Part shown: positions 4,173 through 7,484 of the stretch, one piece after another | Layout: each line of letters opens with the position of its first letter | How positions within the stretch are numbered: the stretch's first letter is position 1 | Assembly: GCF_017348835.2 (NCBI RefSeq) | Contig: NZ_CP071375.1 | Strand: one strand, 5' to 3' | Length of the DNA stretch: 64,000 bases | Source: Escherichia coli | GTDB taxonomy: Bacteria > Pseudomonadota > Gammaproteobacteria > Enterobacterales > Enterobacteriaceae | Position numbers and translations under genes: made by a program | The notes under the pieces: model-generated | The model's database searches: none | The model's input: the letters and a program-made list of their open reading frames with translations, nothing else | Told to the model about the DNA's origin: nothing

Positions 4173-7100
4173 ATGAAATTTATGAACAGAATCAGTCGCT
4201 ATTATTTTCACCGCTCAGTACTTTCCTTATTGATATCTGCCATGATATATGCCCCTCCCGGGATGACGGCTTTCACTTCTAATGTTATTGGCGTTGTAAA
4301 TGATGAGACTGTAGACGGCAGCCAAAGAGTAGATGAACGAGGTACAACAAATAATGCTCATATCATCAATCACGGCAATCAGGAGGTATATGGCGGGATT
4401 TCTAATGGAAGTGTTATTGATACTGGTGGACATCAAGAGGTATCTGGTCATGGCTCTTATCAGGGGCAGGCTAATAATACAGTCATTAACGGTGGCAGCC
4501 AGACAATTAGTGAGGGAGGAATTTCTACAGGGACGATAATTAACGATAAAGGAACAATGTCAGTTTTAACGAATGCTAAAGCTGATGCGACCCGAATAGA
4601 TAATGGCGGGGCCATGGATGTTGCCGGGAACGCGACTAATACCATAATTAATGGCGGTACACAGAATATTTATAATCATGGTATTGCTACGGGAACCAAT
4701 ATCAACAGTGGCACGCAAAATATCAAGAGCGGCGGGAAAGCTGACACAACAAATATCGCTTCCGGGAGCAAGCAGGTTGTTGAGAAAGGAGGTACGGCAA
4801 CTGGCAGCAATATTCGCGCCGGAGGTACGCTGATTGTCGATACCGGCGGTATCGCACATGGGGTTTACCTGGACACGGGGAGTGCTTTAGTTGCCAACAC
4901 GGGCGCGGGGACTGATATTGACGGATACCAGAGGTCATCTCACTTCACTATTACCGGAGGCAGGGCTGAGCATGTTGTGCTGGAAAATACCGGCGAACTG
5001 ACGGTCGTAGCTCAAACCTCGGCGGTAGATACCATCGTTGATGCTGGCGGTAAGATGATTGTCCACGAGGAGGCCGTAGCATATACCACCAGACTTAACA
5101 ATGGCGGCACACTCGATGTGCGGGAGAAAGGCAGCGCAACGGGGATACAGCAGAGTAGTCAGGGCGCGTTGGTTGCAACCACCAGGGCGACGCGTGTCAC
5201 AGGGACACGCGCTGATGGCATCGCGTTCAGCATCGAGCAGGATGCGGCGAACAATATCCTGCTGGCAAATGGCGGCGTGTTAACCGTGGAGTCAGACACC
5301 ACTTCCGCCAAAACACAGGTCAATACGGGCGGACGGGAGATCGTCAAAACAAAAGCCACTGCGACAGGCACGACGCTCACCGGCGGCGAACAAATCGTCG
5401 AGGGTGTGGCGAATGAGACAACGATTAACGACGGCGGAATACAAACAGCTTCGGCTAACGGTGAGGCAATAAAAACAACGATCAATGAAGGCGGTACGCT
5501 GACAGTCAACGATAATGGCAAAGCGACAGATATCCTCCAGAACAGCGGTGCCGCTCTCCAGACGAGCACGGCTAACGGTATTGAAATCAGCGGTACTCAC
5601 CAGTACGGCACTTTTTCCATTTCCGGAAATTTAGCGACCAATATGTTGCTGGAAAATGGCGGTAATTTATTGGTATTAGCAGGTACCGAAGCCCTTGACT
5701 CCACGGTTGGCAACGGTGGGGCAATGCAAAACCTGGGTCAGGACTCCGCCACAAAGGTTAACTCTGGCGGGCAATATACCCTTGGGCGGTCAAAAGATGA
5801 GTTTCAGGCTCTGGCCCGGGCAGAAGATCTCCAGGTCGCTGGCGGGACGGCAATCGTCTACGCAGGTACGCTGGCGGATGCATCGGTCAGTGGTGCGACA
5901 GGAAGCCTGTCGTTAATGACGCCACGGGATAATGTTACGCCAGTTAAACTCGAAGGGGCGATCCGGATTACCGATAGCGCGACATTAACTATCGGCAATG
6001 GCGTTGATACGACGCTTGCTGACCTGACGGCTGCCAGCCAGGGCAGTGTCTGGCTTAACAGCAATAATTCCTGTGCAGGTACCAGCAACTGCGAATATAG
6101 AGTAAACAGTTTGCTACTCAACGACGGTGATGTTTATTTATCAGCGCCTGCCACAACTAACGGTATCTACAATACGCTGACCACCAGTGAACTTTTCGGC
6201 AGCGGTAACTTCTACCTGCATACCAACGTTGCAGGCTCCCGGGGCGATCAACTGGTCGTCAGCAACAACGCCACTGGTAATTTTAAAATCTTTGTTCAGG
6301 ATACCGGCGTCAGCCCACAGTCTGACGACGCGATGACGCTGGTGAAAACAGGGGGAGGGGATGCTTCGTTTTCGCTGGGCAATACCGGCGGTTTCGTTGA
6401 TCTTGGGACCTATGAGTATGTCCTGAAAAGTGACGGCAACAGCAGCTGGAACCTGACCAATAATGTCAACCCAAACCCAAACCCAAACCCAAACCCAAAC
6501 CCAAACCCAAACCCAAACCCAAACCCAAACCCGACTCCCGATCCAACGCCGACACCCGTTCCGGAGAAACGCATCACGCCTTCTACGGCAGCTGTACTCA
6601 ATATGGCAGCAACATTACCGTTGGTATTTGATGCTGAGCTAAACAGTATTCGCGAGCGGTTGAACATAATGAAAGCGAGTCCACACAACAAAAATGTCTG
6701 GGGGGCGACGTATAACACCCGTAATAATGTCACCACCGATGCGGGTGCCGGGTTTGAGCAGACGCTGATCGGAATGACAGTGGGGATCGACAGCCGTAAT
6801 GATATTCCAGAAGGAATTGCCACGCTGGGCGCTTTTATGGGTTATTCCCATTCACATATCGGTTTTGATCGCGGAGGTCATGGCAGTGTGGGCAGTTATT
6901 CTCTGGGCGGCTATGCCAGTTGGGAACATGAAAGTGGTTTCTATCTGGACGGTATCGTGAAGCTGAACCGTTTTGAAAGTAACGTAGCCGGTAAAATGAG
7001 CAGCGGTGGAGCCGCCAACGGTAGTTATCACAGCAACGGGCTGGGGGGGCACATTGAAACCGGGATGCGATTTACCGATGGTAACTGGAACCTGACGCCG

Positions 7101-7484
7101 TATGCATCGTTAACGGGGTTCACCGCTGATAACCCCGAATATCATTTATCCAATGGCATGGAATCGAAATCAGTCGATACCCGCAGTATATATCGTGAAC
7201 TGGGTGCAACGCTGAGTTACAACATGCGTCTGGGGAACGGTATGGAAGTTGAGCCGTGGCTGAAGGCGGCTGTGCGCAAAGAATTTGTCGATGATAACCG
7301 GGTGAAAGTGAATAATGACGGTAATTTCGTCAATGATTTGTCGGGCAGACGTGGAATATACCAGGCAGGTATTAAAGCCTCATTCAGCAGTACGTTAAGC
7401 GGGCATCTCGGGGTGGGGTATAGCCATGGTGCCGGTGTGGAATCCCCGTGGAATGCGGTGGCTGGTGTGAACTGGTCGTTCTGA
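4173..7484 (+). CDS. large autotransporter adhesin-like protein, apparently intact (occupies the position of the K-12 ycgI remnant)
   Basis: ORF 4053..7484. Likely start at ATG 4173 or 4182 (MKFMNRISRYY..., an autotransporter-type extended signal peptide). Passenger rich in G/T/N beta-helix-like repeats, an (NP)11 plus TPDPTPTPVP linker, and a C-terminal beta-barrel ending ...VNWSF. Confidence 0.75.
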   Translation: MKFMNRISRYYFHRSVLSLLISAMIYAPPGMTAFTSNVIGVVNDETVDGSQRVDERGTTNNAHIINHGNQEVYGGISNGSVIDTGGHQEVSGHGSYQGQANNTVINGGSQTISEGGISTGTIINDKGTMSVLTNAKADATRIDNGGAMDVAGNATNTIINGGTQNIYNHGIATGTNINSGTQNIKSGGKADTTNIASGSKQVVEKGGTATGSNIRAGGTLIVDTGGIAHGVYLDTGSALVANTGAGTDIDGYQRSSHFTITGGRAEHVVLENTGELTVVAQTSAVDTIVDAGGKMIVHEEAVAYTTRLNNGGTLDVREKGSATGIQQSSQGALVATTRATRVTGTRADGIAFSIEQDAANNILLANGGVLTVESDTTSAKTQVNTGGREIVKTKATATGTTLTGGEQIVEGVANETTINDGGIQTASANGEAIKTTINEGGTLTVNDNGKATDILQNSGAALQTSTANGIEISGTHQYGTFSISGNLATNMLLENGGNLLVLAGTEALDSTVGNGGAMQNLGQDSATKVNSGGQYTLGRSKDEFQALARAEDLQVAGGTAIVYAGTLADASVSGATGSLSLMTPRDNVTPVKLEGAIRITDSATLTIGNGVDTTLADLTAASQGSVWLNSNNSCAGTSNCEYRVNSLLLNDGDVYLSAPATTNGIYNTLTTSELFGSGNFYLHTNVAGSRGDQLVVSNNATGNFKIFVQDTGVSPQSDDAMTLVKTGGGDASFSLGNTGGFVDLGTYEYVLKSDGNSSWNLTNNVNPNPNPNPNPNPNPNPNPNPNPTPDPTPTPVPEKRITPSTAAVLNMAATLPLVFDAELNSIRERLNIMKASPHNKNVWGATYNTRNNVTTDAGAGFEQTLIGMTVGIDSRNDIPEGIATLGAFMGYSHSHIGFDRGGHGSVGSYSLGGYASWEHESGFYLDGIVKLNRFESNVAGKMSSGGAANGSYHSNGLGGHIETGMRFTDGNWNLTPYASLTGFTADNPEYHLSNGMESKSVDTRSIYRELGATLSYNMRLGNGMEVEPWLKAAVRKEFVDDNRVKVNNDGNFVNDLSGRRGIYQAGIKASFSSTLSGHLGVGYSHGAGVESPWNAVAGVNWSF
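6468..6533 (+). repeat. perfect hexanucleotide tandem repeat (AACCCA)x10 plus AACCCG, encoding (Asn-Pro)11
   Basis: Read directly from the sequence, in frame within the autotransporter linker between passenger and barrel. Confidence 0.95.

Follow-up and report, generated by a model that had tools for sequence, protein, structure and literature searches.

A predicted full-length AIDA-I-type autotransporter encoded between ymgJ and minE in Escherichia coli, paralogous to YpjA/EhaD

The 64,000-nucleotide stretch of E. coli DNA analysed here (the window; contig NZ_CP071375.1) carries an uninterrupted gene of 1100 codons between ymgJ and minE. We consider it probable, at roughly three chances in four, that this gene is a chromosomal paralogue of ypjA/ehaD standing at its ancestral site, and that it would specify a complete type Va autotransporter exported as an adhesin.

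Reading frame and predicted architecture

The frame is open on the + strand from 4053 to 7484, without a single internal stop, and its stop codon lies at 7482-7484, which bears out the uninterrupted frame described in the first-pass annotation. That annotation had placed the start at 4173; however, a GAGG Shine-Dalgarno sequence directly adjoins codon 4173, and the RefSeq start of the orthologues in strains PE164 and DETEC-P649 is the codon equivalent to ATG 4182. Because of the Shine-Dalgarno spacing and these orthologue starts, the likely start is ATG 4182 (MNRISRYY...), giving a protein of exactly 1100 residues. The features of the gene are as follows.

4169-4172, + strand: Shine-Dalgarno GAGG, 9 nt 5' of ATG 4182, by direct reading of the sequence
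4182-7484, + strand: autotransporter coding sequence, 1100 aa plus stop (open frame; start codon as in RefSeq orthologues)
4182-4271, + strand: putative Sec signal peptide, ~30 aa (MNRISRYYFHRSVLSLLISAMIYAPPGMTA), with a basic n-region and hydrophobic core judged by eye
4272-6101, + strand: passenger, predicted beta-helix of AIDA-type repeats (Pfam PF16168, AF2, Foldseek)
6102-6458, + strand: pertactin-like domain at the passenger base (Pfam PF03212, E 6.9e-45)
6468-6560, + strand: Pro-rich linker, (NP)11 then TPDPTPTPV (TRF; AF2 pLDDT <50 over residues 764-793)
6579-6671, + strand: predicted alpha-helix, residues 800-830, directly preceding the barrel (AF2 secondary structure)
6690-7481, + strand: predicted 12-strand outer-membrane beta-barrel (translocator) with C-terminal NWSF (Pfam PF03797, E 6.9e-46)
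7497-7524, + strand: intrinsic terminator with a 9-bp GC-rich stem and UUCG loop, then UUUUCGUUU (folding)

An internal stop or frameshift hidden by error had been named beforehand as grounds for abandoning this reading, and none was found. The protein is 100% identical to WP_269445860.1 of PE164 except for 8 linker residues, the window protein having 4 NP units fewer, and the uninterrupted frame is shared with 12 independent complete genomes. That sequencing or assembly error has masked a lesion and produced an artefactual frame is therefore extremely improbable; we found no support for it, though the linker is encoded by the kind of perfect hexanucleotide repeat in which assemblers can miscount units, and a miscounted hexamer would leave the frame unchanged.

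The signal peptide had been described as extended. Our analysis points instead to a putative Sec-type signal of ordinary length: AF2 gives pLDDT <50 for residues 1-30 and beta structure from residue 34, and the extended signal peptide region (ESPR, PF13018) has no Pfam match in the window protein, though it is matched in many distant homologues. The sequence PPGMTA can also be read in this region. The signal peptide of YpjA is 29 aa long, versus 52 aa for that of Ag43 (PMC13101318).

The remaining parts of the architecture stood up well. In the passenger, the proposed beta-helix-like fold is consistent with nine PF16168 matches at E<=0.001, a TIGR04415 repeat score of 121.8 bits (NCBIfam cut-off 30), an AF2 model with short beta strands throughout, and Foldseek matches to Ag43 passengers (E 5e-22) and to TibA. 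At its base, pertactin (1dab) aligned to residues 640-760 in a phmmer search of the PDB; in related proteins the pertactin-like domain is the autochaperone region. The Pro-rich linker is present and is encoded at 6468-6532 by a perfect repeat, (AACCCA)x10.8 (TRF). Among 13 intact alleles the number of NP units varies from 10 to 37, all length changes being in frame. The helix that follows has an equivalent in solved autotransporters that sits in the barrel pore. The C-terminal barrel with an aromatic end is likewise predicted, by PF03797, by a TIGR01414 score of 318 bits (cut-off 16) and by 12 long AF2 strands across residues 837-1099. Foldseek matched the transport-unit region to BrkA, EspP and AIDA-I, with a TM score of 0.90 between the predicted barrel and that of BrkA, and a sequence search of the PDB recovered the same structural relatives; mean pLDDT for the whole model is 78.5. 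Downstream, the expected terminator was absent from the output of a simple terminator scan and was revealed by folding as a strong hairpin at 7497-7518 with its U-tract (dG -19 kcal/mol, z -5.7, equalled by 0 of 200 shuffles).

Its predicted domains and modelled fold assign the protein to the classical (type Va) autotransporters, in the AIDA-I/Ag43 structural class, with no part missing. Comparison with the AIDA family, which the first-pass annotation had suggested, matched it by Foldseek and phmmer to Ag43, TibA, AIDA-I and BrkA. The self-associating autotransporters (SAATs) Antigen 43, TibA and AIDA-I are its best structural matches, and share with it an AIDA-repeat beta-helix, a pertactin-like base and a 12-strand barrel, yet are only about 20-35% identical to it. 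An extended signal peptide and an adjacent heptosyltransferase gene of the aah/tibC type, found in that group, have no counterpart here; the immediate neighbours are ymgJ, a 39-codon ORF and minE, none of which encodes a glycosyltransferase. The TIGR04415 repeat matched in the passenger is nonetheless of the type on which such heptosyltransferases act. Identity as Ag43, AIDA-I, YfaL/EhaC or BafA was considered and rejected (NCBIfam score/cut-off 173.5/1200, 157.8/1200, 46.2/1459 and 254.9/700, respectively), and no NCBIfam model naming the protein scores above its cut-off. Intact orthologues are called 'adhesin-like autotransporter YpjA/EhaD' in RefSeq, a name that, given no NCBIfam support, presumably stems from a similarity rule. 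In a review, YpjA groups phylogenetically with Antigen 43, TibA and AIDA-I (PMC9289746).

The gene is preceded by a conserved leader (~4017-4181) with its own short reading frame.

3998-4117, + strand: 39-codon ORF in the leader (RefSeq hypothetical protein WP_001131446.1 in orthologous loci)

The leader RNA has no Rfam match at E<=1 and folds no better than shuffled sequences (z -0.63). When one genome per species was scanned for the leader motif, with an exact pattern that puts diverged relatives out of reach, it was found in E. albertii only, apart from two contigs, perhaps Escherichia contamination, in assemblies labelled as clostridia. The upstream region is 31% G+C, and a scan of it yielded no clear promoter. 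The neighbouring autotransporter gene ycgH is frameshifted in the window strain.

The locus in K-12, across E. coli and in E. albertii

Genes in MG1655 run ymgG-ymgI-ymgJ-ycgI(pseudogene)-minE, in agreement with the first-pass annotation, which had placed the ycgI pseudogene between ymgG and minE. The alignment to K-12 that it had suggested as a check revealed a clean deletion.

4153-7139, no strand assigned: segment of 2987 bp missing in K-12 MG1655, SE15 and most E. coli (BLAST against MG1655)
7140-7484, + strand: portion of the gene kept in K-12 as pseudogene ycgI (b4521), its last 345 bases

K-12 ycgI is thus the 3' remnant of the window gene, left after one old, clean 2987-bp deletion that took out the Shine-Dalgarno sequence, the start codon and 986 codons. 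The junction (GCTACT/ATCATTT) has microhomology of at most 1 nt and no IS scar was found at it, so that illegitimate recombination is the most that can be said of the mechanism.

Loss of the gene had been attributed to the laboratory strain. By BLAST, however, 4533 of the 5426 complete E. coli genomes (83.5%) have the identical junction, among them the phylogroup B2 strain SE15, so the loss is no peculiarity of the laboratory strain; a full-length locus occurs in 422 of the 5426 (roughly 8%). These population counts come from BLAST searches of complete genomes because searches of a protein collection gave no close full-length relatives: a word-indexed search listed fragments for the most part, together with distant TibA-like proteins, and by exact-sequence look-up the window protein and two RefSeq orthologues were all absent from the same collection. 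Sixteen full-length loci were inspected. Twelve are annotated as intact coding sequences of 1100-1154 aa, and the other four are broken, by IS903B, IS1203 and IS1A insertions and one frameshift. With the deletion in 83.5% of complete genomes and a quarter of the retained copies inspected (4/16) broken, the gene is dispensable. The intact allele is already known, in that it is annotated in public genomes as an ordinary presence/absence polymorphism, and the open-access papers retrieved for 'ycgI' mention only a pseudogene or a broken barrel model, none giving the intact allele a name of its own.

E. albertii (P0011) has a 1475-aa AIDA-repeat autotransporter in a ymgD-ymgG-ymgI-[gene]-minE context. 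It shares with the window gene its position, domain set and conserved leader, including the 39-codon ORF, marking it as a positional orthologue, and the two proteins are about 54-60% identical in amino acid sequence. Judged from this shared position, the autotransporter locus between ymgG and minE is ancestral and predates the E. coli/E. albertii split. The first-pass annotation had said that the strain retains a gene lost by K-12, and 'retains' is the correct word because an autotransporter sits there in E. albertii too.

These data bear on whether the gene, though intact, is silent or rarely expressed and heading for loss with little phenotypic consequence. The deletion allele in 4533 of 5426 genomes, the insertions and frameshift among retained copies, the AT-rich upstream DNA and the already frameshifted ycgH next door are what such decay would look like. 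However, pairwise dN/dS among seven intact alleles is 0.03-0.22 over dS of up to 0.11, which indicates long-term purifying selection on the intact alleles; the locus has been maintained from before the species split, and the linker has changed length only in frame. We therefore regard a silent gene as unlikely, at perhaps one chance among several, and favour a maintained, probably functional autotransporter.

Relationship to YpjA/EhaD

YpjA (K-12 b2647), known as EhaD in EHEC O157:H7, is an AIDA-I-type autotransporter tied to biofilm formation. The window protein is 90.6% identical to K-12 YpjA (1526 aa) over 1100 aligned residues, and the two have in common the type of signal peptide, the pertactin-like domain, the position of the linker and the barrel, and both genes have the leader with the 39-codon ORF upstream. 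The similarity extends through the surrounding DNA.

3798-7494, + strand: DNA shared with the K-12 ypjA locus in CP4-57 (blastn against the MC4100 ypjA locus), taking in the leader, the whole gene and the beginning of the terminator; the match is 86-87% identical as far as 5108 and 95% identical beyond 5094

Nevertheless, we conclude from these comparisons that the window gene is a shortened paralogue of ypjA/ehaD and not the orthologue of b2647, because the two differ in locus, passenger length, 5' 920 nt and linker. The window gene lies between ymgJ and minE on the core chromosome, whereas ypjA lies in prophage CP4-57, adjoining ypjF/yfjZ. Relative to YpjA, the window protein has two in-frame gaps, one of 217 aa following residue 117 and one of 199 aa following residue 307, and both are common to all alleles at this locus; the E. 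albertii protein, in contrast, aligns collinearly with YpjA over its full length. The first 920 nt of the gene are 14% diverged from ypjA, whereas 13 alleles of the locus differ from one another there by 1.2%. From nt 921 on, the gene differs from K-12 ypjA by 2.2-4.0%, inside the allele diversity of the locus itself. Finally, the linker of the window protein repeats NP perfectly, and that of YpjA mixes KP, DP and NP. Contrary to what had been supposed, K-12 still has a protein of this kind, the 1526-aa paralogue YpjA.

The close match of the 3' part to ypjA could also arise if the full-length gene had been rebuilt recently, homologous recombination in the flanks having copied ypjA from CP4-57 into a ycgI remnant, and the DNA bordering the deleted segment, at 3798-4152 and 7140-7494, is indeed homologous to the flanks of ypjA. 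We think this very improbable: the diverged first 920 nt, the two gaps common to all alleles and the E. albertii gene at the same position all speak against it, and the data are better explained by exchange confined to the 3' part than by replacement of the whole gene. A paralogue long resident at this locus remains our preferred reading. It is conceivable, though we put forward the idea only tentatively, that the two paralogues evolve in concert, with their 3' 2.4 kb (the lower passenger, pertactin-like domain and barrel) homogenised by gene conversion while only the first ~300 residues and the hypervariable (NP)10-37 spacer diverge.

Predicted function and implications

As a working model drawn from the family, the protein would pass the inner membrane by the Sec route via its 30-aa signal peptide, and the C-terminal 12-strand barrel would be inserted by the BAM complex through the terminal NWSF. 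The passenger would then be threaded outward, folding from the pertactin-like domain upward into a beta-helix that would stand on the flexible (NP)n spacer. At the surface it may promote adhesion, cell-cell aggregation or biofilm formation when expressed, as YpjA/EhaD reportedly does.

Expression of the window gene and export of its product are presumed, and it is by analogy with YpjA/EhaD that we propose an adhesive function, with a role in adhesion, aggregation or biofilm formation. Roux et al. are said to have obtained, in 2005, a phenotype for K-12 ypjA only under an added promoter. According to published work, YpjA/EhaD promotes adhesion and biofilm formation (PMC3796261, PMC9289746, PMC4076661); the mechanism by which YpjA acts in biofilm formation is described as unknown in one review (PMC9289746). 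Since its passenger is 416 aa shorter than that of YpjA or the E. albertii protein, the binding properties of the window protein may differ.

Surveys of 'ypjA' or 'ehaD' gene presence that rely on similarity mix two loci, because these are 95% identical in DNA over the 3' 2.4 kb, and reported associations of ypjA with host or pathotype (e.g. PMC12547504, PMC11184843) may confound the two. K-12, naturally null at the ycgI locus yet still endowed with the paralogue, is a handy host in which to test the shortened passenger and the spacer. If the paralogues do evolve in concert, E. coli would be keeping one export module while varying the adhesive tip (the distal beta-helix) and its reach, and the shared 39-codon leader ORF could be a common regulatory element.

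The reading frame and its product

The first-pass annotation had described a single uninterrupted frame for a 1100-aa autotransporter, and on the plus strand the open frame spans 4053-7484, with no internal stop when the gene is translated from the start first proposed, at 4173. The Shine-Dalgarno sequence GAGG (4169-4172) abuts the ATG at 4173 and is separated by 9 nt from the one at 4182, and the RefSeq start of the orthologues in strains PE164 and DETEC-P649 is the codon equivalent to 4182. Based on this spacing and these starts, the product is a protein of 1100 aa that begins MNRISRYY; its C-terminal residues are NWSF. 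The following features come from the DNA sequence and from an AlphaFold2 model for which 37 homologues were used (mean pLDDT 78.5).

Residues 1-30: signal peptide, unstructured in the model
Between signal peptide and linker: passenger, all-beta in the model
Residues 764-793: linker, disordered in the model
6468-6532 (+): Pro-rich linker repeat, a perfect hexanucleotide (AACCCA)x10.8
Residues 800-830: helix in the model
Residues 837-1099: barrel of twelve long strands in the model
13 bases past the stop (+): terminator hairpin with a 9-bp GC-rich stem, UUCG loop and U-tract (dG -19 kcal/mol, z -5.7)

Most of the architecture initially proposed is supported by these features together with domain and structure searches. 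Pfam gave significant matches to nine AIDA repeats, to the Pertactin domain (E 6.9e-45) and to the Autotransporter barrel (E 6.9e-46). In Foldseek, the passenger matched Ag43 (E 5e-22) as well as TibA, and the C-terminus matched the barrel of BrkA (TM 0.90), EspP and the AIDA-I transport unit, the same set that a PDB sequence search recovered. The passenger is thus beta-helix-like, the barrel ends in an aromatic residue, the hexanucleotide repeat encodes the Pro-rich linker, and the gene is followed by a terminator, all as had been claimed. NCBIfam assigned a generic barrel domain (318 bits) and a strand-loop-strand repeat, with no named equivalog above its own cut-off. What did not hold was the description of the signal peptide as extended, as it spans ~30 aa and Pfam found no ESPR match in the protein. 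In this it resembles YpjA, the K-12 paralogue, whose signal peptide is 29 aa in comparison with 52 aa in Ag43 (PMC13101318).

An old deletion at the ycgI locus

In MG1655 the gene order is ymgD-ymgG-ymgI-ymgJ-ycgI(pseudogene)-minE, and the window aligns to MG1655 at 1-4152 and 7140-11577 with nothing between, confirming that K-12 holds a ycgI pseudogene here, as first proposed. From these two blocks and the K-12 junction (GCTACT|ATCATTT, microhomology of at most 1 base), 2987 bp are absent from K-12, comprising the ribosome-binding site, the start codon and 986 codons; K-12 ycgI is the final 345 bases of the autotransporter gene. The deletion is not specific to the laboratory strain: SE15 (phylogroup B2) has the same junction, and of 5426 complete E. 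coli genomes 4533 match a 300-bp query spanning it as one unbroken segment. A single old event accounts for the loss, which is now dominant in E. coli and no laboratory artefact.

The full locus, defined by at least 80% coverage of a ymgD-to-minD query, is kept in 422 of the 5426 genomes. Among 16 of these that we inspected, the CDS is intact in 12 (1100-1154 aa), split by IS903B, IS1203 or IS1A in three, and frameshifted in one. Intact carriers include O55:H7 DEC5B, O157:H7 LSU61 and 493/89 as well as pig, bear, human and sprout isolates; the gene of O157:H7 PV15-279, in contrast to those of the three named strains, is split by IS1203 (IS3 family). The window protein is that of the pig strain PE164 minus four NP units. 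Nearly all length variation among intact alleles falls in the linker, which ranged from (NP)10 to (NP)37, invariably in frame, across 13 intact alleles (window 6468-6532 and loci L002, L004, L007-L010 and L014-L019 from other genomes); the window has (NP)11, one unit more than the shortest, and some alleles also have a 4-aa insertion near residue 654.

"Retained" was the right word for this gene, because E. albertii has a gene for an AIDA-repeat autotransporter of 1475 aa at the same position (ymgD-ymgG-ymgI-[gene]-minE-minD-minC), and the locus is therefore older than the split of the two species. Pairwise Nei-Gojobori comparison of seven intact alleles gave dN/dS of 0.03-0.22 (dS at most 0.11), a range that indicates sustained purifying selection.

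Flanking sequences

The 400 bp upstream of the gene are 31% G+C, and a promoter scan there returned only unremarkable promoter-like matches. Directly upstream, the leader contains a 39-codon ORF (3998-4117, +; product ending QDESPGLVPAG). The ORF is also conserved in front of K-12 ypjA and, in a form of 34 codons, in front of the E. albertii gene. The conserved leader block (~4017-4181) includes an invariant 33-nt stretch, and identity between E. coli and E. albertii is 80.5% in the leader versus 69% elsewhere in the intergenic region. The leader matches no Rfam family and its predicted RNA fold is not unusual; candidate roles for its ORF are small protein, leader peptide and regulator site. 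The Escherichia-specific leader motif also occurs in two assemblies labelled as clostridia, Terrisporobacter mayombei (539-bp contig, coverage 0.74) and uncultured Clostridiales UMGS1323, which may reflect Escherichia contamination.

Downstream, the 371-bp spacer before minE holds two terminator-like hairpins on the minus strand. One (7831-7804, -) fits the end of minE, and the second (7563-7580, -), ~220 nt further on, follows no annotated gene; neither a convincing small ORF nor an Rfam family was found in the spacer. In this strain the neighbouring gene ycgH (173-2835, +), which also belongs to the autotransporters, is a pseudogene. Relative to the intact 887-aa ycgH of DETEC-P649 it lacks one base at ~620 (the A before a G6 run), splitting the frame into ORFs of 157 and 721 aa, and the PE164 gene carries the same frameshift annotation. 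This strain has therefore lost ycgH while keeping the ycgI-locus gene; strains such as P31_YH1 keep both. A 961-aa ORF at 45957-48842 (-) has the length expected for ycgV, another K-12 autotransporter gene, and presumably the expected map position.

Relation to ypjA and likely function

The K-12 gene ypjA, which encodes 1526 aa, is located next to ypjF/yfjZ in prophage CP4-57. DNA similarity between the window and the ypjA locus spans 3798-7494, that is, ~380 bp of leader followed by the gene and the first part of the terminator. Over aligned residues YpjA and the window protein are 90.6% identical, but the latter has two gaps, one of 217 aa after residue 117 and one of 199 aa after residue 307, and its (NP)n linker contrasts with the non-repetitive KP/DP/NP linker of YpjA. 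Both gaps are common to all ycgI-locus alleles, and it is the long form with which the protein of E. albertii is collinear; the copy in the E. coli core chromosome is therefore a shortened derivative. Divergence between the paralogues is a mosaic along the gene: it is 14% over nt 1-920, versus 1.2% among 13 ycgI-locus alleles, and 2.2-4.0% from nt 921 to the end, within the diversity of the ycgI-locus alleles themselves (maximum 3.8-4.4%). A mosaic of this kind would be expected if the 3' 2.4 kb had undergone gene conversion.

By analogy, the protein would be exported by Sec, its barrel would be inserted in a BAM-dependent manner, and its passenger would be secreted, folding from the pertactin-like base. 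Reports on YpjA/EhaD, YfaL and YcgV describe a promoting effect on adhesion and biofilm formation (PMC3796261, PMC4076661), and a recent review groups YpjA with the self-associating autotransporters while stating that the mechanism of YpjA is unknown and that it has no structure (PMC9289746); judging from this literature, the window protein may have a role in adhesion or aggregation.

In the open-access literature we found ycgI mentioned solely as a pseudogene and no separate name for the intact allele, and RefSeq calls ycgI-locus genes "ypjA: adhesin-like autotransporter YpjA/EhaD". The feature is real and correctly read. It amounts to a gene-content polymorphism, already annotated, in a protein class that is well known; the variable spacer, the conserved leader ORF and the putative concerted evolution with ypjA are the few mildly new points. 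Because the 3' 2.4 kb (window 5094-7494 against 5549-7979 of the ypjA-locus sequence L003) is 95% identical in DNA, surveys that score "ypjA" by similarity (PMC11184843, PMC12547504) probably conflate the two paralogues.
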